A program made the translations under genes and the position numbers. A stretch of 64,000 nucleotides of DNA, taken from NCBI GenBank assembly GCA_965228855.1, contig CBDDIJ010000004.1, positions 64,001-128,000 on the forward strand, read 5' to 3'. This document shows positions 26,801-51,602 of this stretch, one piece after another; the stretch's first letter is position 1; every line of letters starts with the position of its first letter. The DNA is from Candidatus Obscuribacterales bacterium (GTDB taxonomy: Bacteria; Cyanobacteriota; Vampirovibrionia; Obscuribacterales; Obscuribacteraceae). The notes under the pieces were generated by a model. That model made no database searches, had not been told where the DNA came from, and saw only the letters and a list, made by a program, of their open reading frames with translations.

Positions 26801-27154
26801 CGCGTAGGTGGCGACGTCGTCCCACTCGAGGTGGCATTTGGCCTTGCCGCCGCGCTTCTTGCCCAGGGTGAGCAGCCGGCACAGCCGGGAATAGGCGGCG
26901 CGATCGGTGGGATAGACCAGCACCGACATGCCATCGACCAGATCGAGGCGGCAGCCGACGATGAGCCTGATGCCGGTGTCCCTCGCGGCCTGATAGGCAC
27001 GCACGATTCCGGCGAGGGAATTGCGGTCGACCACGGCCAGGGCCTCGATGCCGAGCAGAGCTGCCTGGGCGAATAGTTCGTCGCAACTGCTCGCACCGCG
27101 CAGGAACGAGAAGTGGCTTGTGACCTGCAATTCCGCATAGCGCGGCCCGCTCAT
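23887..27154 (-). pseudogene. dnaE2: Error-prone DNA polymerase DnaE2/ImuC with a 1-nt frameshift near 24772
   Basis: PHP domain, [24 protein letters not shown]-terminal OB fold and TRDFR; removing one C gives EDGRFAVRLG. May be a sequencing error. Confidence 0.85.
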
Positions 27155-28671
27155 GCGAAGACCCCATGCAGAAACCACTTGTGCGAGCCGGTCTCGGGGT
27201 CCTCGCCGTCGCCGGCGCGGTAGATCCAGAAGCGTTCCCCGGAGGCATCCTCCACCTGGAAATAGTCGCGCACGGCAATGAGCTCGGCATCGCGCTGCCA
27301 CCATTCGCCGAACACCCGCTCCGGGCCGTCTGCCCGGGCGACGCGATGCCGGATGCCGCGCCAACTGAACCAGACCGGCGGATGGTCGGGCAGCAGCGCC
27401 ATGGTCTCGATGGGTTCGGGATGCGCCAGCAGACGCGGCGGGCGCGGCCAGTCGCCTGGCCAACTCGTCCCGTCATCGGGCGCGGTCGGCGCAACGCGCT
27501 GGATCGAGCGTTCCGGCACGTCGCTCTCGACCGGGGCAAAGCGATAGAGCCGCTGTTCGCCGATGCGGTTGCTGAGCGTGTCGATGAGGTCGGTGATGTC
27601 CGGCTCCGGTTCCTCGACCAGCGATGAAATGATCTGCCTGGCGCCAAAGGGCTCGGCGAGCGTTGCGGCCAGCGTCATGACCTCGATGCCGAAACCGGGG
27701 TCGACGGTTTCGATCCGGTCGGTGAGGAGCCGGGTCAGCCGCTTGACGTCGCGCACGGGCACGGCGGTCCCGGCGCGGATGGCTTGGATCCGGTTGTCGA
27801 CGCGATGAAAGACGAGATCCAGCCGGCGGGCGCCGAGGCCCTTGGCCTCGAGCGCCTCGCAAAGCGCCGTCACGAGTTTGCCGGTATAGCGGGCGATGGT
27901 CTCGGCGGCGCTGATCGGCTCGCCGAAGGCGCGGCGCACTTCGATGATTTCGGGTGAGCGGGCGGGCTCGAACGGTTCGCCGCGCCGGCCCAGAGCCTGA
28001 TCGAGACGGCGGCCAAGCTCGGGCCCGAAGCGCAGGGTGAGAGAGGCGGGCGGCGCCGCTTCGAGGTCGCCGACCCGCTCGAAGCCAAGCGTGAGCAGGC
28101 CGGCGACGATCTCGTGGGCAAGCCGCAAGGCGCCGATTGGAAGCCCGCGCACTATCGCCGTGGCTTGCCCCACAGGCGCAATGAAGGTCGGGCGGGCGAG
28201 GAAGCGCGCGCAGGCATGCGCCGCGCCCCAGGTGTCCGCGACGGCGGCACGCGCGTCGATGCCGGACGCCGCCAGGCGCGACACCAGTCCCTCGAGCATC
28301 GCCTCTTCGCCGCCATGCAGATGATCGGCGCCGGTGGTGTCGATGATGAGGCCATCGGGCGGATCGGCGGCGACGATCGGCGCGTAGCGCAGGCACCAGA
28401 GCGCCATTTTATCGAGCGCTGCGGTATCGCCCGCCGCGTCGAGGTCGAAGCTCTGGAGGTTGGGTACCAGAACCTGGGCCTTGCTCGCCGGCATGCCGAC
28501 GCGCAGGCCGGCCGCGCGCGCTGCCGCATCGGCGGCCAGCACCAGCCGCCGGTTCCCCTTCCGGCCGAGCATGACGATCGGGGTTTTAGCCGAGGGCGCG
28601 GATGCGCCCATCGCGCGCCGCAGGCGATCGGTCGGCCAGGTCGGAAAATAGAGCGAGACGACCCTTGTCAT
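27151..28671 (-). CDS. imuB: ImuB (inactive Y-family polymerase)
   Basis: [17 protein letters not shown]-terminal [19 protein letters not shown]. Confidence 0.9.
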
Positions 28672-29347
28672 CGCAGGCTTCCACTTCAAAGTCGGCGCTT
28701 TCTCCCGCCCGCACTCGGATGAGTTCGAGCTGCCAGCGCGCACGGCCGACGCCGGGGACCGGCAAGGAACGGGAGGGAAGCGCGGAGACACGCCAGCGGG
28801 TGACCGCGGCGGTCGGTTGTCCAAAATCGGTCGCTTCGGTCTGCCGACGCCAGCGGCGGATGGCGATGCCGATGGCGCCGGATGTCTCGGCGGCCAGTTG
28901 CAGCCGGCGGGAGGCGGTCATGGAGAGCCGGGCCAGTTCGGCAACGACGGCGCCTAGCCCGCCATGGCGAAGCCCTTCCTCGAAGCAAGCGAGCACCGAG
29001 GCTTCGTCGCCGGCCTCGACATAGACGACACGGCCGGGCAGCAGCCCGGCCTGGGCCAACGCCGGAGCGAAGAGATCCTGCCGGGTGACACACCAGAGCA
29101 CCTTGCCTTTGGTGCGCGCGGCGATGCCGGCGGCAAAGAGCGCCGCGGCGGCCCCATCGATCGCCCCGTTGCGGCCGCCCGCAACCTCATGCAGCGCCCC
29201 GAGCGCCAGCCCGCCTCCCGGCAGGACTTTGTCGATACCGGGAACGCCGAAGGGGAGCACTGCACGATGGCGCGCCGGCCCGCCTTCGAGGCGTGCGATT
29301 CGCTCGCGAAGCGCAGCGATAGCAGGGCTGGCGGCCGGCTGACCCAT
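28586..29347 (-). CDS. imuA: ImuA (RecA-like)
   Basis: LPGGGLALGALHE, SRRLQLAAE, TRWRV; first gene of the cassette. Confidence 0.88.
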   Translation of the reverse strand: MGQPAASPAIAALRERIARLEGGPARHRAVLPFGVPGIDKVLPGGGLALGALHEVAGGRNGAIDGAAAALFAAGIAARTKGKVLWCVTRQDLFAPALAQAGLLPGRVVYVEAGDEASVLACFEEGLRHGGLGAVVAELARLSMTASRRLQLAAETSGAIGIAIRRWRRQTEATDFGQPTAAVTRWRVSALPSRSLPVPGVGRARWQLELIRVRAGESADFEVEACDDKGRLALFSDLADRSPAARDGRIRALG

Positions 29348-29396
29348 GGATAAATCACTCTCAAACAGGCTTCCCAATGGATTTCTGGGTTGAAAT

Positions 29397-30465: not shown

Positions 30466-31305
30466 GTGCCATTGACCGCTACGAAGTTCGTCATCGATAG
30501 CAGCAGGCTGCAGTCGTCCGAGTTGCGCGAGTTCCTCAGCGCAAGTGCGGCGAACCTGGCTGTGCTTCCGGACTTCGCCTGGTTCGAAGTCTACAAGCAG
30601 GAGACCGTCGAGGCGGTTCTCGCTTTCCTGTCGGTCATCAGCGATTTCCCCGAACAGATCATCGTTCTCAAGTCCGGAGGAGAGATCGCGAGAATGAACC
30701 TCGGCCGGTCCAGCGAGATCGTAGCGATGGAGCAGCAGGGCATCGCACCCCTGCTTCGCGAGATGGCCGATATCATGAACGGACCTCGAAGCGGCGATGC
30801 AATTGTCCTGCAGCAACTAAGGAAGTTATGGAGCGCCGCTGCCGTCAATCGCGCTGGGATGTATGAGGGAGCGATCGACATCGTGACCTCGCTGCCGGAG
30901 ATGTCTGAGCAGATGTTTTCGCAGCACGAGGTACGGATCATCCGTACGAACGGGCGGTACACTGAAGCGATGTTCGCCAGCATTTTTGGTGCTGCTGAAC
31001 AGGTATGGGAAACCTTGGCTGAGGAGTACGGCCTGCCGTGGCGGTCAATGCACCGCGACAATGCAGTAAACGCCTACCTTTTCCGATATTCGCTCGGCAT
31101 CGTCATCTATCTCCTCTGGTGGATACGGACTGGCAGCCCGAAGATCGAGCGCGTCGATCGGATACAGAACGACCTTATTGACCTGAGCTTCGCGGTATAC
31201 GGAACCTACTACGACGGATTTCTCACCGCCGATCGCAAGGCAGAATGGATGTTTCTCAACCTATCTCGAGCACTCGAGACAGCACGAACGTCCGCCTTGC
31301 GCTAA
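30466..31305 (+). CDS. Hypothetical protein, possible PIN-like fold
   Basis: AGGAGG RBS; FVIDSS..E..NDLID..FLTAD acidic pattern. Confidence 0.55.
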   Translation: MPLTATKFVIDSSRLQSSELREFLSASAANLAVLPDFAWFEVYKQETVEAVLAFLSVISDFPEQIIVLKSGGEIARMNLGRSSEIVAMEQQGIAPLLREMADIMNGPRSGDAIVLQQLRKLWSAAAVNRAGMYEGAIDIVTSLPEMSEQMFSQHEVRIIRTNGRYTEAMFASIFGAAEQVWETLAEEYGLPWRSMHRDNAVNAYLFRYSLGIVIYLLWWIRTGSPKIERVDRIQNDLIDLSFAVYGTYYDGFLTADRKAEWMFLNLSRALETARTSALR

Positions 31306-31345: not shown

Positions 31346-31807
31346 TCATAATTTCTGATCGACCTCGAACGCGAAGAATGCGCCCAGCGATTTGCGCATC
31401 CGATCGCCGTCACGAACATCGCATTCCCAGATAACGAGAACGCGATATCCTTGAGACTGCAGCGCTGCGATCTTTTCTGTGTCGCGAGCCTGATTGCGAG
31501 CAAGTTTCTCGGCCCAGTAGCCAACGTTCGACTTTGGCGACGACGCCAGCTTGCAGCCTTCATGCGAGTGCCAGAAGCAGCCGTGGACAAAGATTGCCCA
31601 TTTGTGAGTCTTGTTGGCAATGTCCGGTTTGCCCGGAAGGTCCTCGACGTGATTGCGGAAGCGAAGTCCGTGGGCATGCAAAGCCGATCGGACAAGTACC
31701 TCTGGTTTCGTATTCTTCGAACGGATCCGCGCCATCATTTGCGAGCGCGTAAGCGGGTCGCGCTTCCTTCGCGGTAGAATCTTGGCAACAGGGGACGACT
31801 TGGCCAC
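31346..31807 (-). CDS. vsr: Very short patch repair endonuclease
   Basis: RSQMMARIRSKNTKPE, LPGKPD, FVHGCFWH, VIWEC. Confidence 0.92.
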   Translation of the reverse strand: MAKSSPVAKILPRRKRDPLTRSQMMARIRSKNTKPEVLVRSALHAHGLRFRNHVEDLPGKPDIANKTHKWAIFVHGCFWHSHEGCKLASSPKSNVGYWAEKLARNQARDTEKIAALQSQGYRVLVIWECDVRDGDRMRKSLGAFFAFEVDQKL

Positions 31808-32965
31808 TCAGTTCCCCTTTGATCGGGTTTGAACCGCACCTGCTGGAACATCGGACGCTACGACAATCGGAAGATCATCCAGCGAAAAGACGCAGGTCGA
31901 CGCGTCCGCGCGAAGCCTTCCGTCGGCCTTAACTCTGGCGGAGACAACCCGCCATTGCGCCCCCCTCGGCGAAGCGGTGAGATCCCCATGAATACTGCGG
32001 CGCAGAACGAGCGGATGAAGTCCCGGTGGCATGGCTGGCTGGCTGACGCCAAGATATGCCGTATAGAGATCCCCATCCTGGCCCCGTTCGATCCGGTCAA
32101 GCATGCCCGTGGCCGCCGTATCAGGCAGGCTTTCAGAACCCGCAGCCGCTAGCCACGGCCAGAATGCCGGACAAAGCGCCTGGAACGGGCAGCCGCCGCA
32201 AGCCTCCTCACTGGGCTGACCGAGCGTTTCGGGCGGCCCGCCTGCTGCAAGGTGGCGATTCAGCCCGTCCAATGCCCCGAGCGCGGCACTGGCTTCCGCT
32301 TCACAGGCGGCAGGTTCGAGGGGGACGTTCATGGTTTGGCCGGATGCAGCAACGACCCGGCCCTCTATCGGCCAGGTGCCCCGTGCGTCCGCGATGATGA
32401 CCGCGTACAGCCGCAACTGCCGGCGAAACCCCTCAAGAACTGCCGCTGCTCCCCGCCACGCTGAATCGGGGATGAAAGATTTGTATTCGGTAAGGACGCC
32501 GCCATCGAACCGGTCGGGCCGGCCGGCGAGACGGCCTCCTCGTGCGACCAGCAGGTGTTCCGTCGATGCGGTGCCACGATGCGGTGCCTCCCGCTTACTG
32601 CCGGTATTCGACGTGATGGCACTCCGTGCTGAGGACATTGCACGCTGACGCACCAGAAAATAGTTCGGCCAACGGGCTGGCTCCGCATAGCGCGCGTCAA
32701 GCGGATGAGTGGTGGCCGCTGCAGCTGCCTCCGCGACGGCCGCCGTCCATGCTTGCTCGATGACTGCGTCCGACGCTCCAGGCTGCGCTGCAGACTCCAT
32801 TACCCTGTGGAACGCGGTTCCGAGCCAAGCGCGCGGGTCATGCAAAACCCAAGTGTTCGCTGCGTGCGCTGTACTCAGGGCTCCTCGCAGGGTGCAAAGC
32901 CGCATGTGCGACCACAGCGTTGGACCCGTCCGGTCAAGAGGCGTCAGGACAATCTGGGGGCGCAT
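31808..32965 (-). CDS. Cas4/AddB-like PD-(D/E)XK nuclease
   Basis: N-terminal Cys, GTAFH, GRPD, EYKS, QLRLY, CGGCPFQALC. Confidence 0.75.
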   Translation of the reverse strand: MRPQIVLTPLDRTGPTLWSHMRLCTLRGALSTAHAANTWVLHDPRAWLGTAFHRVMESAAQPGASDAVIEQAWTAAVAEAAAAATTHPLDARYAEPARWPNYFLVRQRAMSSARSAITSNTGSKREAPHRGTASTEHLLVARGGRLAGRPDRFDGGVLTEYKSFIPDSAWRGAAAVLEGFRRQLRLYAVIIADARGTWPIEGRVVAASGQTMNVPLEPAACEAEASAALGALDGLNRHLAAGGPPETLGQPSEEACGGCPFQALCPAFWPWLAAAGSESLPDTAATGMLDRIERGQDGDLYTAYLGVSQPAMPPGLHPLVLRRSIHGDLTASPRGAQWRVVSARVKADGRLRADASTCVFSLDDLPIVVASDVPAGAVQTRSKGN

Positions 32966-32966
32966 G

Positions 32967-35900
32967 CTAGACCGGACGCCGCAACGCCTCGAAGACGGAG
33001 ATGAAGCTGCGCTGCGGATCGACCCTGAGACTACGTCCACGCTCGGCATCGTCCCATGCAGCGGCAAGCTCGGGGCCTAAGGCTGCTCTGTCAGTGTTCC
33101 AAAGTGGATGCGTGACAATGAGTGCCTCGGTCCCATTCGTCAGGGCCGGCAGGCCTCCGAGAACCGTCCGGGTGTAGCCGGGCCGAGCCGCTTCTAGCGT
33201 GACAGCCGCGAGATCGGCGACGCGGCTCCACCTCGGAGAAGATAGCGATAGGGGTACCGCGGGATTGAGAGCAAGCTGCGCCATATCAACGGCGAGGCGC
33301 CAGTCGAGCAGATTGTGATAGGCGAGATTGCTATAGCTGCGTAGGCAGTCTGGGCAGGATGTATCGCATGCGTCCGCATGAGCATGAGCGACCAGATGAT
33401 CGTGAAATTCGCGCGGCGTTGGCTGCGCGACCATTTCTAAAAGCTCCTGCATAACCACCGGAGTTCCAAGGTGCGTGGCATAGCCCGCACCATTTTCTAG
33501 GGTGTCAGAGAGGAAAACCTGACCCACGACGGTACCGAGTGCCGGATCCTCCTGGCTGCGGATGCCGGCCTTCAGCTCATAGTCCTGAATATCAAGGTAC
33601 ACTGCGGCAGCGCGCCGGAGCATGAAGGCCAAGGAGTATAGCGCCGCCCGTCCCTGTGGCGTCCGCGGATCGGCAGCTCGTCCTGGGCCGTAGTCGCGGA
33701 TGCCCAGCAGCATCATGTCGGTCTCGCTGATCGCTGCCAGCGCGCATTCCACAATGGGAGCAGTCGGCGCCAGCGGGCGCGCGGGTCGGCGGCCGACCGA
33801 TGCAGCATGCTTTTCCTCGGCCGCCGTCGCCGCAGCGACGTCGATCATTGCATCCGTGCCCGCCCAGCGCTCTTGGGAGAACTGGAACAGCCTGCCGGCA
33901 TTGTCGTTGACCACGTGGAGCCGTCCTTGACCGGCGCCGACGTCGAAATTGAGGTGCGGTGCAATGGCGAAGGCGGGTCTTCCTACTTTCGGCCGCGCTG
34001 CGCGGGGAACAAAGTCGAATACCCCGTCATAGTCGCGGGCCTTGGTGAAATAGCTCACGAAGCCCTTGGGTTGCCGGAGATCCATGGGATGGTAGTCACG
34101 GTCGCTGGGACCTGCTGGCGACGCGCATACCGGGCAGGCCGGTACGTCGGGGGTTACAGTCTCGACATGCTGGCAGTTGCCACAAAGTCCGATACGGACG
34201 GATGGCCCCAGCGGGTTCGTTTCCTCGACGGCGCGGGGGCCCTGTGGCCGATAGTGCGCGACACCGATGGCGGTGTGGATAGTCCGTTCTTTGACGGTCT
34301 CGGCACCAGGCGCGAACATGCTGACCGCCAGCTCGAGATCGCGGTCAACGACCTGGCGTGGCGGCCAGTTCGCCGGCTGCTTGTGATAGAGCAGTCGCGC
34401 GCGGGTCGGAAAACCGAACATGGGAAGGATGCCGCGATTTGCGAGACGCTCGCTTAGCGGAATCTGTATGAGGCTCTGATCCTGGGTCGCGGCTGTGATC
34501 TCACCAACAAGCCGAGTTGCGATCCAGTTGATCGCGGCGAGCTGCTGAGCAGCGTCTCCGGCGAGACGTGTCCCGACGAGCAGTGCGTCGCACATGTGTG
34601 TGACGGCCGCACCATTATTTCCGATCCATTCCTGGATGATGTCGGCGACAGTGGTTCCCGTGTAGCCAGCAGGCGGATTGGGCGGCGGCAGTGTCCAAGC
34701 GTCGTAGGCGCCGAATTCGCCATGCACACTGTCGCCGGCTGTGCCTGTGAACAGGTTCAGTTCAGAAAAAGCCTGTCGAAGCACTTCTTTGGCCAGGACG
34801 CGTAGAAGGATCTGCGGCCGGTTCGTATCGACGTAGGGTGGCGGCGGCGGATCGGCGGTGATCCGCTCAGGCCGCTGGAAGTAATAGTCGTCGTGACTCC
34901 GGCCGCGGCACAGCGTGAGCGCGAGCGAAAGCGCCGCGCCGCGACGTCCCGCCCGCCCTACGCGCTGCTGATAGTTGAAACGCATAGGCGGCATGTTGGC
35001 CATCATCACCGCAAGGAGCGAGCCAATGTCGACGCCCGCCTCCATGGTCGTGGTGACGCTGAGGAGGTCAACATTGTCGGTGAGAGGCACCTCAGCGCCG
35101 ACCGTGATGTTCTGGAAGAGCCGCTGGCGGTCGCGAGCGAGCAGCTTGTCCGTCTGGCCGGTCAGTTCTGCACAGTTGAGGCGGAAAACAGGGCCCGCGC
35201 TCACTGCGAGCCACCGGTAGTAGTCGGCTTCCTGACCGGCGTCGTCGACGCCAATGTGCAGGGGCGTCCCGAGCGGGGCGTGACATCCGCTACAGATGCC
35301 ACCGCTTGCGTGAAGGTGGATGCGTGAGCAGCGGCCGCACTCATAATAGATGTCGCCCACGTCGGCGACGAAGAGGCCGCGAAACAGCAGCAGCCCCTGA
35401 TCGAATACACCGGCCCTGGTCAGAAGGTCGGTCACATCGCGCTCGAAGTCAGCGACGACTAGACCATTTAGGAGTGCGACGGCTTCAAGATAGTCCCGTG
35501 TGTATTTCGGAAGTCGCGTGTCATCAACTGTGGCTCGATGGGTATCGATCCGCCGACGTTTGCCGAGCATGCGGATGCAGCTATCCGCTGCCTCCTGGAT
35601 GGCCGCGGACGCGCCCGCGTAACGCATGCGGTCAAAGGTGAGGTATCCCAGCTTCAGCGATTCTAGGTCTCGCCGCCCCCCCGAGAAAAGAGTCTCAGCG
35701 ACGGCTTCGCGGGCCGCGACCTGGATGCGCGTGCGGTGAGCCTGCTCCTCTCCCGATAGAGCGGGCCGGTAGTCGGGTGGGAACCGGGTCCAGTCGAAGA
35801 GACGCTGCCATTCGCCCTGGTGCTCGTCGAGATCGGTCCACATGACGCTGCGGTCGACACCGCCGGGATTCATCCCCGTGGTAAGCAGGCGGCGAGATGC

Positions 35901-38612
35901 TTCGTCCTCAAGGTCCGTGACGCGGGAGAGGCCTGCCCTTGCTCGCGCTAGCACCTGAACCGCAAGCTGCTCCATCGTCAGGCCGCCGACGGCCGAAGGC
36001 AAGGTGCGCATGAGTGGATGCTGGGCCGAGAGAATGGCCTGGGCCTCGCTCTGCCGCGAAACTGCAAACCGGCCGGCGAGTAGTGTCTCCTCTGGGCTCA
36101 GGGCGCCGCCTTGCGCCTGGCGCTCGAAGAGGAGCACCGCACGCACGCTATCGGCCATGCCGTCGACCAGCGTCTGCCGCAAGGCATCGAGCCAATGAGA
36201 CTTGGCGACGCCGACCGAAAGCTTGGCCGCGTCTTGCCGGCTATCCGAAAAGAGAACCAGCTTGCGGCGCACATCCTCGGGTGGCGACCCGGCGGCAGGC
36301 TGAGGCGGTGCGATCTCGCGCAGCAGCGAGTCTGAGAGCACCTGCGCGACCTTCTGGAAGCCGGTGCGCTGGGTCCGGATCGGAGCCGAGCTAGCCATTC
36401 CGCTCCAATTGGCCTCGCAGTGGGGACAGACCGATGGCCGCTCGTTGCGGGCACTCGGAACGGCCGCGCGAATCGGCACGGGATTCTGATGGAGATCGGG
36501 AACATGGTAGATCCAGCCTGTCGCGTCCGCGCGCCTGCTCGCGACCTGGATTTCCCCCGTGCGATGGTCGAAGGCAGCCATGCGCCACCTTCGCGTGACC
36601 CCTTCCTGGACCCAGCTGTCGCGCTGCGGCTGGCGCAACGTGCCGTCGGGCATCCGAGCGGGCCAATAGATGGCATAGTTGTCATAGTCGCGGTCGTTTG
36701 CGGAATGATCCGGAGCCTTTTCGATGTTCGGATCATCCGGCACGAGCGACCAGACGTTCGGCTGTAATGTGCGGCGATAGCCGCCGAGGAAGATGTCCCC
36801 GCAGGGTTCGCAGTAGAGCATTTCGAGCACACGCGATCCGCACGCGCAGGTGGTTGTCGGCCGGTCGAAGAGGCGTCCGACCGGAATACTTGCATCTGCC
36901 CAGGTCGCCTCGGTGCACTGGGGATTGCTGCACGCCCATACCCCTTGGACGTTGCGGAAGAAGAGGTGGACCCTGACCGGCAGTAGTGGTGTGCTGCCAA
37001 CTGACTGTGCAGGTGCCATAGCCGCCACGATGCCAGCAGCCGCGGCCGTCGCATCTTCAAACGAGTCGCCGGGAAAGAGCGTAGCGCCGAGCGCGCCGAG
37101 GGTTCGGGGCACAATGGTTGGATTCTCATCTGACCCGCCGTTGCACGCTGCGCGAACGGCTTCGGTAACTCCCGCGTTGTCCAGCACAGCGCCCAGCTGC
37201 TGCTCTTCGGGCAGCGTCGGATCGGGCACCGGGAGACCTGCCGCGGCCGCGAAAGTGCCGGCGGCCGTGGCTAGACTAGTCCCGCCACCATCGGCAACTT
37301 GATGTCCGAGGGTTGCCAGTTGGGCCCCGAGGGCGCGTATTCGGCCCGTGGCACCGGGCGAAAGCGGGACTGCACCGCCTCTCACAAGGTTGAATGGACG
37401 TGACCGTCCGAAGAACTGTCGCAGATAGTCCTGCGCACGGGGTTCGTCTTCGCCGAGCGACGCGCTGGACGCCAGGATGCGCAGCTGCGGATGGTCCGGA
37501 TGCAGCCCGAGTCGATCATAGAGAACGCGCAGAATGTAGCCGACCTCGGTGCCTGGGGTACCTCGATAGCTATGAAGCTCATCAACGACGAGATGGAAGA
37601 TGTTTGCTTCGTCAGCATCGAGCCAACGGCGAGTCTGGTCGAAGATGGAAACCTCAACATCCCGCATCAGCATGATGTTCAGCATGCTGTAGTTAGTGAT
37701 GAGGACGTCTGGTGGTGCATCTTGCATATCCCACCTGCTCCACATCTCGCCGCCGTCGAAGCGGGGAAAGAAGCGTTCGGCATCTGTGCCGGCGACCCTC
37801 GCGGCTAGCCCGCTGAGGCGCTGCAGCTCGGTGCGGAGATCGGCTTCCCCGCTGTTGCGGTCCGGCCGTCCAGCGATCGGCGTCCAGCCGGTATAGCGGC
37901 CGAACCAGAAGCGATTGCCCGGACGGTTTGCGCCAAGCCAGGCGCGAACCTGATCACCATCAAGTGCCAGGCGGAGCCGGGCCATCTGATCTTCCGCAAG
38001 GGCGTTGAGTGGGTAAAGAACCAGCGCCCGCATGGCAGGGAGGCGTCCTCCCTGCTCATGCGCTCGCTGCGAAATTCGTGGATGGTAGCGCCGGTTCCCC
38101 GAGCCCGGTGGAGGCGGCATCGTCCACCAGTCGTTCCGTGGCGCAGCTCCAAGCACGGGCCAGGCGGCGGACTCTTTGACCAGCGCGGCGAGCACCGGAA
38201 GGTAGATGGATTCGGTCTTTCCCGATCCGGTGCCGGTAAGGATGACGGAATCCTCGCCGTTGACCACGCTCGAACGCAGCATTTCGACCTGATGTGTATA
38301 CAGTTCGATAGGAACGCCTGTTCGGGTGCGAAAGAGACCCTCCTCGGCGATGCCGGCGAAGTCCCCCACTGACGCCGCGGTCCAGCCGGCGGCTGAAGCA
38401 AGTTCGGTGGTGACAGCAGACCGGATGTCGTGTCCGCTGCCAGCGTATGGGGGCTGCGGTTCAATGAGCGGCTCGCGGTAGAGGACCCCATCGCGGTCCA
38501 GCAGCCGTCGCCGGGCCTGGACGAGTTCTTCAAAGCGCAGATCAAAAGGGCTGTCGAAATAGCGCAGATATGCGCCCTTCAGGCTTTGGAATGTCTGGAT
38601 TGGATCGCTCAT
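32967..38612 (-). CDS. Large DExH helicase with C-terminal DUF1998 (DruE-like), 1881 aa
   Basis: GTGSGKTE, YPLNALAEDQ, ITNYSML, DELH, SAS, TTTMEAGVDIG, QRVGRAGR, CDTSCPDC. Confidence 0.88.
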   Translation of the reverse strand: MSDPIQTFQSLKGAYLRYFDSPFDLRFEELVQARRRLLDRDGVLYREPLIEPQPPYAGSGHDIRSAVTTELASAAGWTAASVGDFAGIAEEGLFRTRTGVPIELYTHQVEMLRSSVVNGEDSVILTGTGSGKTESIYLPVLAALVKESAAWPVLGAAPRNDWWTMPPPPGSGNRRYHPRISQRAHEQGGRLPAMRALVLYPLNALAEDQMARLRLALDGDQVRAWLGANRPGNRFWFGRYTGWTPIAGRPDRNSGEADLRTELQRLSGLAARVAGTDAERFFPRFDGGEMWSRWDMQDAPPDVLITNYSMLNIMLMRDVEVSIFDQTRRWLDADEANIFHLVVDELHSYRGTPGTEVGYILRVLYDRLGLHPDHPQLRILASSASLGEDEPRAQDYLRQFFGRSRPFNLVRGGAVPLSPGATGRIRALGAQLATLGHQVADGGGTSLATAAGTFAAAAGLPVPDPTLPEEQQLGAVLDNAGVTEAVRAACNGGSDENPTIVPRTLGALGATLFPGDSFEDATAAAAGIVAAMAPAQSVGSTPLLPVRVHLFFRNVQGVWACSNPQCTEATWADASIPVGRLFDRPTTTCACGSRVLEMLYCEPCGDIFLGGYRRTLQPNVWSLVPDDPNIEKAPDHSANDRDYDNYAIYWPARMPDGTLRQPQRDSWVQEGVTRRWRMAAFDHRTGEIQVASRRADATGWIYHVPDLHQNPVPIRAAVPSARNERPSVCPHCEANWSGMASSAPIRTQRTGFQKVAQVLSDSLLREIAPPQPAAGSPPEDVRRKLVLFSDSRQDAAKLSVGVAKSHWLDALRQTLVDGMADSVRAVLLFERQAQGGALSPEETLLAGRFAVSRQSEAQAILSAQHPLMRTLPSAVGGLTMEQLAVQVLARARAGLSRVTDLEDEASRRLLTTGMNPGGVDRSVMWTDLDEHQGEWQRLFDWTRFPPDYRPALSGEEQAHRTRIQVAAREAVAETLFSGGRRDLESLKLGYLTFDRMRYAGASAAIQEAADSCIRMLGKRRRIDTHRATVDDTRLPKYTRDYLEAVALLNGLVVADFERDVTDLLTRAGVFDQGLLLFRGLFVADVGDIYYECGRCSRIHLHASGGICSGCHAPLGTPLHIGVDDAGQEADYYRWLAVSAGPVFRLNCAELTGQTDKLLARDRQRLFQNITVGAEVPLTDNVDLLSVTTTMEAGVDIGSLLAVMMANMPPMRFNYQQRVGRAGRRGAALSLALTLCRGRSHDDYYFQRPERITADPPPPPYVDTNRPQILLRVLAKEVLRQAFSELNLFTGTAGDSVHGEFGAYDAWTLPPPNPPAGYTGTTVADIIQEWIGNNGAAVTHMCDALLVGTRLAGDAAQQLAAINWIATRLVGEITAATQDQSLIQIPLSERLANRGILPMFGFPTRARLLYHKQPANWPPRQVVDRDLELAVSMFAPGAETVKERTIHTAIGVAHYRPQGPRAVEETNPLGPSVRIGLCGNCQHVETVTPDVPACPVCASPAGPSDRDYHPMDLRQPKGFVSYFTKARDYDGVFDFVPRAARPKVGRPAFAIAPHLNFDVGAGQGRLHVVNDNAGRLFQFSQERWAGTDAMIDVAAATAAEEKHAASVGRRPARPLAPTAPIVECALAAISETDMMLLGIRDYGPGRAADPRTPQGRAALYSLAFMLRRAAAVYLDIQDYELKAGIRSQEDPALGTVVGQVFLSDTLENGAGYATHLGTPVVMQELLEMVAQPTPREFHDHLVAHAHADACDTSCPDCLRSYSNLAYHNLLDWRLAVDMAQLALNPAVPLSLSSPRWSRVADLAAVTLEAARPGYTRTVLGGLPALTNGTEALIVTHPLWNTDRAALGPELAAAWDDAERGRSLRVDPQRSFISVFEALRRPV

Positions 38613-39481
38613 GCGAGTCTTAGCCCCGTGATGGCAAGCGTCAGTCTCAGAATTTCAAGTGGAATGCCTGCAAACGAAATTCGCCGGGTGGCAGCGTCGT
38701 AGTGCGGCGGCAGGCCACTGCAGAGAGCAAGGGCCCGGGCGATCGGAGCTGGCGGAAGCAGCTGGCCAGGAAGACCGAGCACTTCCGTGTCGGACGACCA
38801 GGAAAGCGTCTTGAGTTTAGCGGCGGCAGCAAGACGGCCGGCCCGGTCATCGATGTAGGCACATTCAGATACGTCGAGCTTCAGAAGGCTCACCCAGTCC
38901 CAGTCGCGTTTGATGCGGAAAAAGCCGGATCGGGCGGCAGAAGCCTCTGCAAGCGTGGACTCGACCCAGCCGATCCGTGAGCGAGAAAAACGGCGTACTG
39001 TTTCGACGCGCCCACCCACCATCGGACACGGTGTGCGGGGCCAGTCGCGGATGGTAGGAGTGCAGGCTAGAAGGGTGAGACCGGCGTCGAGCTGCAAGGG
39101 TATGCCTGCCGCAGACGCGACGGCTGCGAACTCGCCATTGGAAGCTCCTGTGAGCTGGACAGCGGCGGGAAGCGTCTCGATCGCGTTGGTTGCGAGTTGC
39201 ACACCGACGCTTGCGCATGAGGCGGCGAGCGAATCCAAGACGCCTGGCGTTCGCGCTCCGCACAGAACCGCTGACACTAGACCGTTGGGACGTTCTGGCA
39301 GGCCAGCAAGCACCGGAGGTGCAATCTTCCAGTTGTCATTGGGCAGCAGTTCCAAGTGTCCGAGCGTCGCCAGATTGTCGACGGTCCGGCGAACAGCACC
39401 AGCATCAGCAAGGTCCGCGGGTATGTCGTTCAGCCGGCCGGTTCGGCGAAACGACATCCATTCGAGCAGGCGGTCCGTCAT
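38609..39481 (-). CDS. Hypothetical protein, Druantia-associated candidate
   Basis: ATGA overlaps with both neighbours; 290 aa. Confidence 0.75.
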   Translation of the reverse strand: MTDRLLEWMSFRRTGRLNDIPADLADAGAVRRTVDNLATLGHLELLPNDNWKIAPPVLAGLPERPNGLVSAVLCGARTPGVLDSLAASCASVGVQLATNAIETLPAAVQLTGASNGEFAAVASAAGIPLQLDAGLTLLACTPTIRDWPRTPCPMVGGRVETVRRFSRSRIGWVESTLAEASAARSGFFRIKRDWDWVSLLKLDVSECAYIDDRAGRLAAAAKLKTLSWSSDTEVLGLPGQLLPPAPIARALALCSGLPPHYDAATRRISFAGIPLEILRLTLAITGLRLA

Positions 39482-41868
39482 GTGCGAGGCCTCCTGCTCC
39501 TAAGCTGGCGGGCGCGCGTCTTGGCCTTCCGCCATGCCTCCTCGCCGAGTGGATCGGCCTTGACGAGCGGAAGGCGCCGTGCAGTCGCAGTCCGGACTGT
39601 AGCAACCCACTCTGCATCATGCCGATTGGATGCGTTCTGTGCTGGTGCCGGACCAAGCCAGACGACCCGGCCTTGCGTTCGGCGCGCTCCTGTCGCCGCA
39701 AGAAGGAACGCGGGCGGCTCGTCCGAGAGGCCGACGGACACGGCGACATCGTGGCGCTGCCGAAGCGGCGTTGCACCTGATTTAGCCCCTAGCGCTACGA
39801 GCGTAGCCAGTGGCTCGTGTGCGATGACCCTCTCGCCAGCTGGGCCGAGAATTAGCGCACCGCAAATGCGCGCCCGAGCCCAAGGACCCTTAGCGCCTTC
39901 TCCGAAGCGCGTCGGGTGGGCATCCCAAAAATCCCAGCCATCAGAGAGCCAAGGGTCCCCCGCAATCTCGTAAGATACCGACGGACCGGGCACGACGTCG
40001 ACCATGTGCTGGCCCGCCTCGTCCCATCCAGCTGCGACCCACGAGCCGTCGGAAGAAAGCGTGGCTGGCTGTCCGCCGATCGTCACCGAAGCCCCGACCG
40101 GCGCTGGAACGATGGATACCCGCGGGGGATGGCCAGCAGCATAGACCCGCTGCCGAATCGCGAGCCCTCCATCAAAGATGATCTCAAGTCCTTCCCCCGG
40201 GTCTAGCGGCCGGAGGCCGGCAGGAAGCGGCGGCGCGGCGGAATGTGTTGGTGCGTAGCCCGAGAGCACGATCCAGCCTTCGGGAATGCCGTGCCAGTGT
40301 TCGAGCAGCTGCGGGGCTGGTGACCCCGTCGATTCCGCGGCGACGCGGACGGCTTCCACGTCGGTTGAACGGCAAAGCAGCGTATGCGCAATGCCAGCGC
40401 TTACCGCGCTGACTGAAATCAGATCGGGTTCATTGGCGTCGGCGGAGAAAACATGAACCTGTCGAGCGCTGCGCAACCACTGCAGGCGCTCAGCACTCGC
40501 AAGGCGGAGTTCACCGTCCAGAAGTTCACTCGTCCATGGCAGATTCAGGTCGTCATAGCGTCTTTCGTCATACGCCTCGACGATGTGGCTTCCGGCCAAC
40601 TCCACAATTACGCGCTCGGGAAATCCATCTGGACGTGTCATCACCACGGACAGTCTTGCCGTCCGGCGGATCGGATGGAGGGATAGGCGCAGCTTGGCTT
40701 CGGCTGGTGGACGAGGCGCAAGCTCCGGAGCACCTGCGGGGAGCTGTGCAGCTGTGTCGCTCGCAGCAATCGCCCGGCGCTTTCCACGGCGGTCTCTATG
40801 AATGGCCGGCTGTTTGGACCGAGGCTTGAGGGGTGCCGGAGCCTCGGTTGCCTCGTGTCCGTCGAGCTTGCGAGCTCCCGGAGGATCATCGACGGCTGAA
40901 TGCGCTGCATCGGTCGCATTGACGGTGGCCAGCAATTCTGCGTCCGGCTCTTCCTGGTGAGGGGAGCTAGCCGGATACTTGGCGAGACTCTCGTCTGGCA
41001 AACGAGGTGCGCCGTCTACGGCCGCAACGGTCGTGTTGTCCTCCAGCAGCGCCCGATCGTCCACGGCTTCCACTGGAGCGGTAAGATCGTCATCAAGGGG
41101 CGTAGCAGTCACATCTTCGCCTGCCGCCACAGGTCCCGCGCCGGGATCCTCAATTTCCTGAGGCGGCTCATCGGTGTCGGCAGGCAACACGTCGGGCACG
41201 GTCTCGACTATCGCAGTGCTGTTGGGCATCGGACCCAACGATGTTTCGGCGACAGGTTCCGCCGACGATTCCGGAGACGGGTCATGGGTGCCTGGGACGG
41301 GAAGACGAAACGAGCTAGGTTCCGGGCTGGCGATTTCCGGCGACGGGTCTGCGGGTTCCTCGACGCTCGGAGTGTCCTCCAAGGGAACCTCAAGCACCTC
41401 GGCGGGGTCGGCCGGCAGACTATCCTGCTCGATGCCGATCGCGATGATGCTAGAGGGTGTCAGATCCAGGGATGTTTTGGTTGCGGCCATCGACGTCGAG
41501 TCTGGCAGCGGCCCGGAGATGATCGGCTCGACCGGCGGGGATCCGCTGCTAGCGACTTCCTGCTCGGGGATCGCCTCGGCTGAGACCGTGGTCCCGGAGT
41601 TGCTCGGGGCCTCATCCATGTGAGCACGTGCTGAAGGTTCCGCTATACTTTCCTGCGTTTGACGCAGGTGGGCACTGCCAAGGTGTTCACTTCTGTCGAC
41701 GCCGCCGTTGCTGGCCGCACGCGCAGCGGGTGCTGTCACCGCGACCGGTGTAACACATGCTCCTGTATTGAGACCTTTCGGGCGCGTCAGCCAGCGTGGG
41801 GCTTTTGGGCCCAGCGTTTTCACGAGGGCCCCAAACAGTCCGGCAAGTGCACGAAGAAGCTTCTCCAT
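39478..41868 (-). CDS. Hypothetical protein (~796 aa) with a long acidic Pro-rich N-terminal half
   Basis: ATG 5 nt after the dcm stop; stop overlaps next start. Confidence 0.7.
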   Translation of the reverse strand: MEKLLRALAGLFGALVKTLGPKAPRWLTRPKGLNTGACVTPVAVTAPAARAASNGGVDRSEHLGSAHLRQTQESIAEPSARAHMDEAPSNSGTTVSAEAIPEQEVASSGSPPVEPIISGPLPDSTSMAATKTSLDLTPSSIIAIGIEQDSLPADPAEVLEVPLEDTPSVEEPADPSPEIASPEPSSFRLPVPGTHDPSPESSAEPVAETSLGPMPNSTAIVETVPDVLPADTDEPPQEIEDPGAGPVAAGEDVTATPLDDDLTAPVEAVDDRALLEDNTTVAAVDGAPRLPDESLAKYPASSPHQEEPDAELLATVNATDAAHSAVDDPPGARKLDGHEATEAPAPLKPRSKQPAIHRDRRGKRRAIAASDTAAQLPAGAPELAPRPPAEAKLRLSLHPIRRTARLSVVMTRPDGFPERVIVELAGSHIVEAYDERRYDDLNLPWTSELLDGELRLASAERLQWLRSARQVHVFSADANEPDLISVSAVSAGIAHTLLCRSTDVEAVRVAAESTGSPAPQLLEHWHGIPEGWIVLSGYAPTHSAAPPLPAGLRPLDPGEGLEIIFDGGLAIRQRVYAAGHPPRVSIVPAPVGASVTIGGQPATLSSDGSWVAAGWDEAGQHMVDVVPGPSVSYEIAGDPWLSDGWDFWDAHPTRFGEGAKGPWARARICGALILGPAGERVIAHEPLATLVALGAKSGATPLRQRHDVAVSVGLSDEPPAFLLAATGARRTQGRVVWLGPAPAQNASNRHDAEWVATVRTATARRLPLVKADPLGEEAWRKAKTRARQLRSRRPRT

Positions 41869-41873
41869 GAGTG

Positions 41874-43052
41874 CTATCGGCCAGCGTTCGGCGGCTGTTG
41901 CAGAAGTAGGCCCGAAACGATACGGGCGACGGCGCGCCCCATAAGCGGGGGAACGGCGTTGCCAACCTGCTTCAGCTGCTGGCACTCGCTCCCGTGAAAG
42001 ACAAAGCCGTCGTGAAAGGACTGCAGCCGTGCGGCCTCGCGGACAGTAATCCACCGGTCGTGTTTCGGGTGTATCCACTCAGAAAGGTCGCGGTGCATCT
42101 GGGCCAGGATAGTGTAGGACGGCTTTTTGGGATCGAGACGGCGCCACTTGTGGCCGCGAGTGCCGGTCCAGAGTGACTTCGGAAGGGAATCGCCGCGGGC
42201 TCCTGGCCGGATCGCGGCGATTATCTTCTTCCGTCGGGCTTCGATCCCCTTGGTATGGTGATTGTGAAGCGCATCCTCGGAAATGTTTGCGCGCTTGCAC
42301 GCGGAGCCGAGCAAGTCGTGGTCCCAATCCAGCCGCATGAGTTTCTGAAAGTCCGAATATCGCCCGCCGGGCTTCTTCGGATAGGGAAGCGGTCCGTCGT
42401 CTGCTGATACGGCTCCAGGAAGATCGGAAAGCGCTTCGTGGACCGTGACGGCGCCATCGGTTTTTTCCCGTTCGACTAGGGCCTTAAGCACCTCGTCGAA
42501 GTTCCCGGTGAACGGCTGATTGTCCCGGATACCGAAGACAAATACGCGCCGCCGGTGTTGCGGAACCCCAAAGTCCGAAGCGACAGCGGGGATGATCGCT
42601 GTCCGCACGTACCCAGCTTCCCGGAATGCGTCGACAATTTTTGCTTTGAAATGGCCATTCTTCATGGCCACCATGTTGGGAACATTTTCCATTACGAAGG
42701 CGCGCGGCCGCAAAACCCGCACAACACGAACGAACTCTTCGTAAAGGCGGTTTCGCGGATCGTCCAAGTTGCGGGGGCCGATCTGGCTGAAACCTTGGCA
42801 AGGGGGACCGCCGTAGACCATATCGATCTGTCGCGCAGCCAGTTCAGCTAGATTCGGCACGCCGGGCTGCTCGTCGCGCAGAAAGCGGGCAATGTCGCCC
42901 TTGAAGAGCGCGACCTCACTGAAGTTGGCTGCGTGAGTCAGACACGCGTGAGCGTCCGACTCTACAGCGCAAACAACATTCCAGCCCGCAAGTCGCACCC
43001 CTTCACAGAATCCGCCCGCTCCGCTGAACAGCGATACAGCGGTCAGCGTCAT
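41874..43052 (-). CDS. dcm: C5 cytosine DNA methyltransferase (DruM-like)
   Basis: FSGAGG, GGPPCQGFS, ENV, QHRRR, REAARLQSF, QVGNAV. Confidence 0.93.
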   Translation of the reverse strand: MTLTAVSLFSGAGGFCEGVRLAGWNVVCAVESDAHACLTHAANFSEVALFKGDIARFLRDEQPGVPNLAELAARQIDMVYGGPPCQGFSQIGPRNLDDPRNRLYEEFVRVVRVLRPRAFVMENVPNMVAMKNGHFKAKIVDAFREAGYVRTAIIPAVASDFGVPQHRRRVFVFGIRDNQPFTGNFDEVLKALVEREKTDGAVTVHEALSDLPGAVSADDGPLPYPKKPGGRYSDFQKLMRLDWDHDLLGSACKRANISEDALHNHHTKGIEARRKKIIAAIRPGARGDSLPKSLWTGTRGHKWRRLDPKKPSYTILAQMHRDLSEWIHPKHDRWITVREAARLQSFHDGFVFHGSECQQLKQVGNAVPPLMGRAVARIVSGLLLQQPPNAGR

Positions 43053-43312
43053 CGCGCGCCGCCCTCTAGGCTACGCCCGCTTCGGCCGTGATCACTGATC
43101 GAGATTCGTAAGAACGAATTACGCCCCATAGTCCCCCATCATGACCTGCGGGTCTTGGTTCCCGCAGATCCTTCCTCGTTACAAGCCGCGCCTGGTCCCC
43201 CGAAACTCCAGACGCACTGCGCGCCGGTAGAACGGCGCATTCCCGAGGCAAAGAGATCCGTATGGTGATCCTGGGCGCTTTTCCGACGAAATAGTATAGA
43301 CTGAAGAACTTC

Positions 43313-44173
43313 ATGTTCTCTAGTCCGCTTACTACGATGGCGCCGTTGTCCCCAATCCGTCTTACGAGCCTCCTCCTGGTTGAGGAGCGCCTCCTGGAAG
43401 CCAAGTATTTTGCCAGTCGGCTCGCGAAGCAGAACGACAGGGACAGGTTCGGGTACGAGCTGAATGCCTTCCTGGCGGCCGCACGCAGTGTGACATTCCT
43501 GTTGCAGAAGGAGATGGCGAGAGTCCCCGGTTTTGCCGATTGGTGGGACGTCCAGCGGCACCATCTCTCGAACGACCCCGCGGCAACGTTTTTTCTAAAG
43601 CTCCGCAACTTGTCCCAGAAAGAGGGGCGTGTGTCGCTGGTCGGAGGTTCGCTTGGTCAGGGTCGATGGACGTACCGGTTCGCAGGAAACTCTGAACGCG
43701 TTCCAGGGTGCCTTCTGAATCGCGACGTTGCCGACTGCTGCCACGAGCATGTGGGAAAGCTCGCGAGGGTCATCCTCGCTTTCTCGGAAGCGTTCCCCTA
43801 TCAGAGCTGCCCACGGATGGCCCTTACGCCGGCAGGAGTCGCTGCGCTGCACCTTCCTCTGGAGCAGATAGAGGAGGCGCTCGGATTTCCGAACGGGTGG
43901 ACAGACACCGGAGATGCCACAAACGGCGACCGGCGCATCCAGGTTCTCCGCGAGCATGTGGATGGCGTCGACTTCGCCGTGATCAGCCGGTTAGCAAACT
44001 GGAAGCCGAAGGCGGCGCCCATATCGGATGCGCCCGCGTCCACTTTCTCCGAAGAGATTCTTGCATCGATGGTGCGGCAGCTCGAAGGTTCTCAGCGGAG
44101 CGTGATGACTGCGCAGCTCGCGGCCGATCTGCTCCTCGGTGGAGGTTCCGACGCCAGTGCACAAGACCCGTGA
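43313..44173 (+). CDS. Hypothetical protein with HEPN-like N-terminal domain
   Basis: EAKYF..LNAFLAAARSV..LRNLSQKE; start may be 43337. Confidence 0.6.
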   Translation: MFSSPLTTMAPLSPIRLTSLLLVEERLLEAKYFASRLAKQNDRDRFGYELNAFLAAARSVTFLLQKEMARVPGFADWWDVQRHHLSNDPAATFFLKLRNLSQKEGRVSLVGGSLGQGRWTYRFAGNSERVPGCLLNRDVADCCHEHVGKLARVILAFSEAFPYQSCPRMALTPAGVAALHLPLEQIEEALGFPNGWTDTGDATNGDRRIQVLREHVDGVDFAVISRLANWKPKAAPISDAPASTFSEEILASMVRQLEGSQRSVMTAQLAADLLLGGGSDASAQDP

Positions 44174-47691: not shown

Positions 47692-48411
47692 TCATCGCTT
47701 CCGGGACTTACTTTTCGATTTCGATGTCGTGGTTGGGTAGCCGAAAGGGAGAAAGAAGTGGGAGACGCGGATCGTGCCGTGTGTGGGCGCCAGACTAGCG
47801 TCGCGCTGGTGCTCCGTATCGAAATCCGCGCCAGCAAAGAGAGTTGAGGGGCGGACATATGGCGCGCCGGCCGACGTAGGGCACAACCGCAGGGCGGCGG
47901 CCAAGGCGGCATCTTCGAGCGCCGTCCGTATCGGCGGTACGACTTCTTCTTCGGCATCGAGCAGAACACCGACCATTGCCGCGATCGCTTGCTTGCGGCT
48001 GTAGATTCCGGTCACAAATCGTCCGAGTCCTTGGTCCCGCAGGTAGTGGTCGCGATGCCGTTTCTGGCGTCCGAGACGCTTGAATTCGAAAACAAGGTGC
48101 ATACCCCTTACGTCGTCATTCCAGCCATAGACGATGTCCGTTCGCCGCTCCTCGATCAGAGCCCCGGTGGCAGGGTCGATGTCGCCGATAATGTCTTCGG
48201 CCGACCACATGCCGAGCAATCCACGTTCCCGCGCGACGTAGTTCTCGACATAGACCTTGAGCCGCTTGGTGAGACCGTTCTCCTTCGTCTTCGGATTGAA
48301 ATCAGGGCGAGGTCGGGCGGCCAACTCCGACCAACCCTGCCGCACGGCCTCAACGGCCTCCGTGGCCGGCCGAATTGGGAAAGCCGCAAGCCAGTCAGCT
48401 GGTGCAGTCAC
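47692..48411 (-). CDS. Putative PD-(D/E)XK restriction-like endonuclease
   Basis: E..RTDI..VFEFKRL; start overlaps the MTase stop. Confidence 0.65.
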   Translation of the reverse strand: MTAPADWLAAFPIRPATEAVEAVRQGWSELAARPRPDFNPKTKENGLTKRLKVYVENYVARERGLLGMWSAEDIIGDIDPATGALIEERRTDIVYGWNDDVRGMHLVFEFKRLGRQKRHRDHYLRDQGLGRFVTGIYSRKQAIAAMVGVLLDAEEEVVPPIRTALEDAALAAALRLCPTSAGAPYVRPSTLFAGADFDTEHQRDASLAPTHGTIRVSHFFLPFGYPTTTSKSKSKSRKR

Positions 48412-51515: not shown

Positions 51516-51534
51516 GCTATGCCTCCCGACACGA

Positions 51535-51549
51535 GAACATAACAGGAAC
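51535..51549 (-). promoter_or_regulatory. Alphaproteobacterial LexA-box match upstream of the MTase
   Basis: GAAC-ATAACAG-GAAC. Confidence 0.6.
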
Positions 51550-51602
51550 ACGTAGTTCTGTGAAACCCGGAATTCGCCGACGGGGCGATGACGACGCCCG
51601 GG

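Follow-up and report, generated by a model that had tools for sequence, protein, structure and literature searches.

Druantia operon with a type IV-like core, a cytosine methylase and a PD-(D/E)XK nuclease in an Obscuribacterales genome

The operon and its closest described relatives

Druantia systems are built around DruE, a large helicase of about 1800-2100 aa with a DUF1998/MZB module, and types I and III are proven defences. Type II was reportedly defined by Doron et al. in 2018 as DruM-DruF-DruG-DruE. Here we describe a six-gene Druantia operon in a 64,000-nucleotide stretch of the genome of a Candidatus Obscuribacterales bacterium (GenBank: GCA_965228855.1, contig CBDDIJ010000004.1, positions 64,001 to 128,000), the whole of which is called the window. 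The operon is a recurring variant of the known type IV and not a new system. Our favoured reading, held with moderate confidence, is that of an island-borne Druantia of the type IV kind which is likely gated by its own methylase and in which the nuclease DruK, docked on DruE, is predicted to cut foreign DNA.

According to Payne et al. 2021 (PMC8565338), type IV consists of DruE, DruF and DruL, without DruM. Four DruE clades (I-IV) were obtained from 566 loci, with types II and IV making up 22% and 18%; in the same source, type III is composed of the exonuclease DruH and the helicase-nuclease DruE, with DruH acting 3'-5' to prepare substrates and to bring in DruE, and the self DNA of DISARM hosts is described as marked by methylation (10.64898/2026.05.13.724313). 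Ojima et al. 2024 (10.1101/2024.04.14.589459) connect type I Druantia with host N6-methyladenine (m6A) and the escape of phages with methylation, so that methylation is tied to self versus non-self in type I. DruE is placed in the YprA family, and type II Druantia is named "Type IV CoCoNuT", by Bell et al. 2025 (PMC12458937). Our literature searches found no paper describing DruK or the six-gene set; DruK is absent from the supplement of Payne et al. 2021 and was not found in the literature alongside Druantia.

The operon consists of six co-oriented open reading frames (ORFs) on the minus strand (43052..31346), with junctions of 5, -4, -4, 1 and 0 nt:

dcm, 41874..43052, minus strand: first gene, 392 aa, C5 cytosine DNA methyltransferase, DruM-like
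druF (gene 2), 39478..41868, minus strand: 796 aa from the ATG at 41868
druL (gene 3), 38609..39481, minus strand: 290 aa
druE, 32967..38612, minus strand: 1881-aa SF2 DExH helicase with DUF1998/MZB zinc module
druK, 31808..32965, minus strand: 385 aa from the ATG at 32965, Cas4/AddB-like PD-(D/E)XK nuclease
vsr, 31346..31807, minus strand: last gene, 153 aa, very-short-patch-repair T:G mismatch endonuclease

The longest ORF of gene 2 comprises 866 aa with a GTG start at 42078, and that of druK 419 aa versus 385 aa from its ATG. The six genes form an intact, translationally coupled and tightly packed operon. An earlier note on this DNA, made from the sequence alone, had described six co-oriented and tightly coupled genes with these gaps, and our coordinates and junctions agree. 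The arrangement is not due to chance, because other genomes have the genes in this order too. The catalytic motifs of Dcm, DruE, DruK and Vsr are intact.

Pfam and NCBIfam concur with the families that the note had assigned to four of the proteins (methylase, DExH/DUF1998 helicase, nuclease and Vsr), and PADLOC models name five of the six genes (DruM-like, a weak DruF, DruL4, DruE4 and DruK). The assignment to the Druantia family is borne out by the match of DruE to DruE4 (PADLOC: PDLC00051) with 1726 bits along model positions 4-1816 of 1829; two DruE2 matches reach 1599 and 1549 bits. The size of DruE and its DUF1998/MZB module are those of a Druantia helicase: in Pfam it has DEAD, Helicase_C and MZB/DUF1998 (MZB with 23.5 bits, just below the cut-off of 24.2), and its translation shows the motifs GTGSGKT and DELH. 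DruL is matched by DruL4 (PADLOC: PDLC00057) at E 3.4e-18. The 796-aa and 290-aa proteins, which the note had left as unknowns, indeed have no match in Pfam or NCBIfam, but PADLOC and hhalign identify them as DruF and DruL.

The core resembles type IV in that DruF, DruL and DruE follow each other in this order, with DruF placed upstream of DruL by a profile-profile match and DruL directly upstream of DruE with an overlap of 4 nt. DruE4 and DruL4 are the best PADLOC matches of their proteins, and DruF is homologous in its C-terminal part. Type IV is defined by the absence of DruM, whereas here a C5-methylase is the first gene, and such a methylase is nearly always found in the DruE branch to which the window belongs. 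The operon is further distinguished by the added DruK and Vsr, and the DruF of the branch by a hydrophobic anchor and a long low-complexity linker that replace the canonical N-terminal domain of ~275 aa. The window DruE is only 33-35% identical to the canonical type IV loci sampled.

Like type II, the operon has a C5-methylase and DruF, and its DruE is similarly long; the long DruF2 models of type II represent DruF and DruL fused. However, the window has DruL as a separate gene, and its DruK and Vsr are outside the type II set. Dcm corresponds to the cytosine methylase DruM of type II (DruM2, PADLOC: PDLC00033, 245 bits, E 3e-73), though generic MTase_II models outscore DruM2 (best match PADLOC: PDLC03326, 375 bits). 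No DruG model matches any of the six proteins at E <= 0.01 in PADLOC, and no McrB/CnuB-like GTPase was found among the window's proteins with Pfam. Classical type II was rejected on the lack of a DruG match, in agreement with the earlier note, which had seen that the gene set is not that of type II. Its further proposal of an undescribed subtype stands in so far as the nuclease and Vsr lie outside type II, but not for the core, which is that of the published type IV, nor for DruK, for which PADLOC-DB 2.0.0 already has two PD-(D/E)XK nuclease models that match the window nuclease.

Type III (DruH-DruE) is similar in combining a large DruE helicase with a partner nuclease. It differs in that its DruE has its own active phospholipase D (PLD) nuclease domain, in lacking a methylase and in targeting DNA structures, whereas the window operon has a separate Cas4-like nuclease and a methylase. 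DISARM likewise comprises a YprA-family DUF1998 helicase accompanied by a DNA methylase and a separately encoded accessory nuclease, but with another helicase branch, the PLD nuclease DrmC and SNF2/DrmD partners; weak DrmA matches to window proteins were seen in PADLOC (E 3e-8). In E. coli, Dcm and Vsr are a very short patch repair pair encoded in one transcription unit. A C5-methylase and a Vsr endonuclease also share one transcription unit here, but dcm and vsr are located at opposite ends of the operon with four Druantia genes between them. As far as our literature searches go, the near-constant methylase linkage, the predicted DruK docking, the DruF anchor and the fixation of the six-gene operon in a sub-clade are new.

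Recurrence in other genomes and the DruE tree

With DruE as the query and one genome per species, 68 loci were collected together with flanks of up to 10 kb and searched with the six window proteins using tblastn. To be counted, a locus had to match DruE over its full length and to include 5 kb or more of upstream and 3 kb or more of downstream sequence. In the close clade (DruE identity of at least 63%, 14 loci), the C5-methylase, DruF and DruL are present in all 14 loci each, DruK in 10 and Vsr in 13, and methylase, DruK and Vsr occur together in 10. The 28 loci of the distant clade (44-50%) have the C5-methylase in 26, DruF in 27, DruL in 27, DruK in 8 and Vsr in 15 cases, and the combination of methylase, DruK and Vsr in 0. 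DruK and Vsr are never found together in the distant clade, and five of its loci have neither. Another locus with both DruK and Vsr (L101) was left out of the counts since its DruE match is incomplete. The co-occurrence of nuclease and vsr with homologous helicases, which the earlier note had wanted surveyed, is thus found in the close clade.

There are a few irregularities in the 10 complete close loci: the DruK ORF of L063 is short (220 aa), DruE is interrupted by frame breaks in L067, and ~1.2 kb of additional sequence precedes vsr in L065. Another three close loci, truncated by contig ends (L058, L060 and L072), agree as far as their sequence reaches. Decayed copies were seen in L063, L067 and L084, the last of which retains only the methylase, part of DruE and Vsr.

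As a control we used 401 genomes of the window's phylum, of which 26 have a DruE4-like gene, resulting in 27 regions with 7 kb flanks. In these 27 canonical type IV-like loci the methylase was found once, and DruK and Vsr were not found (0 each); DruF and DruL are located upstream of DruE in the 11 loci submitted to PADLOC. The methylase is therefore present in 40 of the 42 context-complete loci of the window's branch versus 1 of the 27 control loci. A tree of 74 full-length DruE sequences was built with FastTree only, with a midpoint root and with neither reference type I-III sequences nor a DruG-linked type II DruE; L112 and L036 were excluded due to internal stops. All loci found by the window's DruE are on one branch of 54 rows with a support of 100, and this methylase-linked branch is separate from two methylase-free groups.

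The flanks of the six-gene block are not common to other loci, which indicates that the block moves as a unit; the exception is a 279-aa gene beside vsr in two loci. In the window this gene (30466-31305, plus strand) is convergent to vsr, and homologues of its product with 80-83% identity are encoded beside vsr in L058 and L067. The 279-aa protein has no Pfam, NCBIfam or PADLOC match. A DruE4-like gene was detected in only 2 of 60 related genomes, and both matches are far weaker (1095 and 918 bits). The block is present in records naming the cultured isolates Propylenella binzhouense L72, Mesorhizobium alhagi CCNWXJ12-2 and Methylosinus sp. Sm6, so it can be cloned. According to the record names, it is also found in Endosaccharibacter trunci KSS8 and two Bradyrhizobium strains.

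Nuclease, methylase and putative membrane anchor

DruK is matched by a PADLOC DruK model (PDLC00060, "PD-(D/E)XK nuclease superfamily") at E 6.8e-23, with Cas4 at only 1.7e-4, and by PDDEXK_1 (Pfam: PF12705) at E 1.4e-11. The residues C24, E136, D151, K162, Q183, Y187 and C256-x2-C259-x5-C265 are invariant in 21 of 21 aligned sequences, position E160 is E or D, and a C-terminal domain of ~115 residues is also conserved. The earlier note's description of the nuclease as Cys-rich fits the four invariant cysteines C24, C256, C259 and C265. By these residues DruK has a PD-(D/E)xK core (GRPD ... E/D-Y-K), the QxxxY motif and, as in Cas4/AddB enzymes, the cysteine pattern C...CxxCx5C, and it is predicted to be of the Fe-S type. 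While core, QxxxY and the four cysteines are shared with the Cas4/AddB family (PF12705), DruK stands without CRISPR or AddA context and has an extra C-terminal domain of ~115 aa, which is modelled against DruE. No relatives were found in the Protein Data Bank (PDB) with the DruK profile (best E 0.063), and the plasmid collection gave no match with tblastn.

Wherever a counted locus has DruK, its gene begins 5-109 nt downstream of druE; L101, which was excluded, has 908 nt between the incomplete DruE match and the start of the DruK match. Because DruK always directly follows druE, we consider it the partner of the helicase. DruK and the last 600 residues of DruE (1282-1881) were modelled as a complex, both entered as alignments, and the C-terminal region was picked because other Druantia types fuse a nuclease to the DruE C-terminus. 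The complex model scored 0.77 versus 0.00 for the best of three controls. This mark is reached by 116 of 157 solved complexes and by 2 of 215 mismatched pairs, a rough guide here since our own alignments were used. The runs share at least 63% of contacts, and the predicted local distance difference test (pLDDT) score of the partner is at least 83. The modelled interface includes DruK residues 95-111 (with the invariant W99 and Y102) and 296-357, and on the side of DruE residues 1491-1499, 1545-1557, 1635-1644, 1687-1694 and 1842-1858. No similar complex was found in the PDB by sequence. The model supports the predicted docking of DruK on the DruE C-terminal region, and in this predictive sense also the earlier idea of a helicase that works with a separate nuclease effector.

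A docked DruK might also be an end-processing loader, namely a Cas4-like exonuclease that trims ends or forks for the entry of DruE, with degradation left to another enzyme. Cas4/AddB-type enzymes are end-processing nucleases, DruK is dispensable in many relatives, and the preparation of substrates and recruitment of DruE reported for DruH of type III would be a parallel; the complex model with DruK on DruE suits either role. However, besides Vsr there is no other recognisable active nuclease in the operon according to Pfam and PADLOC, and the loci without DruK show no conserved replacement among those tested. We regard the loader role as unlikely, though worth keeping in view, and favour DruK as the nuclease that cuts foreign DNA.

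DruE itself has solved relatives. It matches PDB chain 9wae_A ("Helicase", 1970 aa) along its length at E 2.3e-177, and six further entries likewise. A literature search by the PDB codes 9WAE, 9WDS and 9WAF returned unrelated papers only, so that the solved 1970-aa "Helicase" is unattributed. Further matches are PDB 6znp and chain 9tu7_Y, a 2108-aa DEAD/DEAH box helicase (E 1.3e-39) that is presumably a type III DruE.

Methylases of the Dcm family make 5-methylcytosine (m5C) at a short motif, and Vsr nicks at the T:G mismatches that result from m5C deamination, which limits the mutational cost. The window's Dcm is matched by PF00145 (E 3.1e-59) and TIGR00675 (174.9 bits, cut-off 100.65), and its translation has the motifs FSGAGG, GGPPCQGFS, ENV, QHRRR and GNAVPP. 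Vsr is matched by PF03852 (E 1.6e-27) and TIGR00632 (137.2 bits, cut-off 97.85); across 29 homologues the residues D62 and G76-C77-F78-W79-H80 do not vary, and H75 hardly does.

The 53 methylases beside this DruE branch, the window's included, form eight clusters at an identity of at least 45%, and they are placed on either side and on either strand of the system. Vsr is present with 14 of 15 methylases of the window's cluster, with 0 of 11 of the next, and with 5/5, 4/4 and 3/3 of others. Because Vsr presence tracks the methylase cluster, Vsr is taken as the partner of the methylase: on this sequence evidence it is the usual companion of a C5-methylase and not a part of Druantia as such. The earlier note had seen Vsr as an extension of a Druantia-like operon, yet its occurrence goes with the family of the methylase, not with DruE. 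The retention of many unrelated methylases beside one helicase branch points to repeated recruitment and to a functional need for cytosine methylation, from which we infer that the methylase-linked DruE branch probably needs it.

Alternatively, Dcm and Vsr could be independent of the other genes, as a solitary methylase with its repair enzyme or as what is left of a type II restriction-modification (RM) system, and play no role in telling self from foreign. Such independence would suit the tracking of Vsr with the methylase cluster instead of DruE, the canonical type IV systems without a methylase and the distant loci, in which the methylase module lies up- or downstream on either strand; moreover, defence islands stack unrelated systems, and a Type IIG RM gene is only 5 kb off. 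Against it stand the methylase counts (40/42 branch loci versus 1/27 control loci) and the eight methylase clusters, which argue for selection and not for hitch-hiking, and dcm and vsr are the first and last genes of a single operon in the window's clade, with 5-nt and 0-nt junctions. An independent pair is thus rather improbable, and a Druantia that is gated by its methylase is preferred.

The single-sequence PADLOC match of DruF is weak (DruF4, E 0.0063). An alignment of the C-terminal 397 residues of the 796-aa protein with 43 homologues (A5) was compared with canonical DruF (A8) by hhalign, which gave a probability of 98.5% and E 2.3e-15 over 350 columns. The match covers canonical positions 277-661, so only the C-terminal half is homologous and gene 2 is a DruF without the canonical N-terminal domain of ~275 aa. 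The protein has a weakly hydrophobic N-terminal helix, a low-complexity linker of ~330-400 aa rich in Ala, Pro, Glu and Ser, and a conserved all-beta C-terminal region (400-796). This region was modelled with AlphaFold2 (AF2) at a pLDDT of 85.5 and a predicted template modelling (pTM) score of 0.55, and Foldseek found weak Ig-like multi-domain matches (best E 3.9e-3). At E <= 1e-3, Foldseek had no match in the PDB for DruL or the DruF C-terminal region; the PDB sequence search gave none for DruF and no relatives for DruL (best E 1.8).

In 40 of the 53 DruF ORFs of the branch (at least 550 aa) the protein opens with a hydrophobic 19-mer (Kyte-Doolittle mean of at least 1.6) followed by an Arg/Lys cluster. 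The N-terminus of most relatives therefore looks like a single-pass anchor that would leave the bulk of the protein in the cytoplasm. No such hydrophobic N-terminal segment was seen in five canonical DruF proteins checked. The long Ala/Pro/Glu/Ser-rich linker follows the anchor in the DruF of the branch, and in the window the 5' half of druF spans 40669-41868. Two Bradyrhizobium loci, L074 (5104-9138) and L075 (5053-9138), have a DruF of 1344-1361 aa with a Walker-A-like motif near the N-terminus and not a hydrophobic anchor; the DruF of L074 has no PADLOC match at E <= 1e-5.

A long DruF2 model (PADLOC: PDLC00016) matches DruL as well, with its C-terminal end (positions 788-998 of 1030). Since the long DruF2 models end in DruL, DruF and DruL are one polypeptide in some systems, which suggests that they work together. 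The AF2 model of DruL (pLDDT 95.7) has an N-terminal winged-helix domain and an alpha/beta body without a clear fold match. Residues 1-55 resemble winged-helix domains in VIA-align, with a Z score of 7.0-7.7, which VIA-align itself rates as common, and a root-mean-square deviation of ~1.7-2.1 A over 52-57 residues.

Island context and proposed mechanism

The GC content at third codon positions is 0.62-0.71 in the stretch with the operon versus about 0.8 left of 29 kb, and the low stretch ends at an integrase adjoining tRNA-Leu. The tyrosine integrase gene (52718-54166, minus strand) is on the 5' side of tRNA-Leu(caa) (54502-54586, plus strand). A repeat of either tRNA-Leu end was sought within the window, where only the tRNA itself matched and the far island end was not found. 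Located 5 kb from the operon, a Type IIG restriction enzyme-methyltransferase of 1047 aa (48408-51551, minus strand; PADLOC: PDLC03623, 801.7 bits) adds a further defence system to the island. The low stretch also encodes, at 45802-47277 (plus strand), a protein of 491 aa that combines DUF7830, DUF6035 and CoiA-like nuclease domains and has no PADLOC match.

Left of the operon there are an ArdC-like anti-restriction protein (20430-21446), a SRAP peptidase (22468-23091) and AbiV (23109-23807), which are typical cargo of conjugative elements. They are followed by an imuA-like, imuB and dnaE2 cassette (23887-29377, minus strand). Its dnaE2 consists of two overlapping ORFs, 24665-27463 (PHP, polymerase, finger) and 23887-24861 (HHH, OB), which suggests a frame break or a sequencing error.

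Upstream of dcm we find one further feature:

leader with candidate promoter, 43053..43350, minus strand: TAGAGA-18 nt-TATACT at 43322..43293, ~240 nt upstream of dcm

The promoter scan was overall no richer than chance (2 sites found, 2.7 expected), and of the 12 aligned loci only two, L059 and L062, share the conserved block that contains the promoter-like site. The site (43293-43322, minus strand) also carries a GAAC-N5-GTTC palindrome. A small ORF at 43066-43608 (minus strand) was considered as a seventh gene and rejected, since the similarity to L059 and L062 extends to the frames of both strands and the translation looks non-coding; the region is read as a probable conserved leader.

The defence reading of the operon is supported by its neighbours: the Type IIG RM, AbiV, the integrase and tRNA-Leu. 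It is very improbable that the block is instead a mobile DNA-repair module like MrfAB which acts with Vsr on damaged or deaminated DNA: DruE does belong to the YprA/MrfA helicase family (PDB 6znp match; Bell et al. 2025), MrfA works with a separate exonuclease, MrfB, and the imuA-imuB-dnaE2 mutagenesis cassette and the SRAP gene are nearby, but DruE has 1726 bits with DruE4 while the NCBIfam repair-helicase models score far under their cut-offs, the distribution is patchy and island-borne, the neighbours include RM and Abi genes, and Druantia types I and III defend their hosts.

In the favoured reading of a methylase-gated Druantia, m5C may mark self, as the earlier note had supposed: host DNA with m5C would be spared and unmethylated incoming DNA would be engaged. 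A modification-dependent reading, similar to type IV restriction, was rejected because the operon makes m5C itself. DruL with its winged helix and DruF with its array of beta-sandwiches, membrane-tethered in most relatives, might act as sensor or scaffold. DruE would translocate on the DNA and unwind it, with a 3'-to-5' direction that is borrowed from type III DruE, and DruK bound to DruE would degrade the DNA and so supply the nuclease that type III DruE carries fused. We consider this mechanism plausible.

Several points weigh against it. Since 4 of the 14 close and 20 of the 28 distant loci lack DruK, it cannot be the sole effector in this branch. Gating by methylation is no intrinsic property of DruF-DruL-DruE, as canonical type IV is found without a methylase in 26 of 27 loci. 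The docking of DruK on DruE is a prediction and not a measurement. The window's DruF is only weakly hydrophobic at its N-terminus, though homologous in frame: a hand count gave a mean hydrophobicity of ~1.0 for the 19-residue window from residue 4 of the ATG-start protein, and the best 19-residue window (1.62) starts three residues upstream of the ATG. In the literature searched there is no experiment or mechanism for Druantia type II or IV. Concerning nuclease activity of DruE itself, an inactivated Vsr-like C-terminal domain is described for type I and II DruE by Bell et al. 2025 (PMC12458937); at the profile level, hhalign found no similarity between the C-terminal 150 residues of the window's DruE (A2) and a Vsr alignment (A3), with a probability of 0.2%.

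Going further, the branch might be a distinct lineage that is gated by m5C and anchored to the inner membrane through a single-pass segment of DruF and its long flexible linker, with a subset of loci armed by a Cas4-like Fe-S DruK on the DruE C-terminus. We put this forward tentatively and give it clearly less weight than the methylase-gated Druantia as such. If true, the branch would amount to a restriction machine whose methylases are interchangeable and which encounters unmethylated DNA at the point of cell entry.

The operon offers several handles, namely a methylase that should define self, a nuclease that can be separated from the helicase and is predicted to dock on it at a given site, and a membrane anchor on DruF in most relatives. 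If methylation gating holds, part of Druantia would work like DISARM and RM systems, unlike type III, which reads DNA structures.

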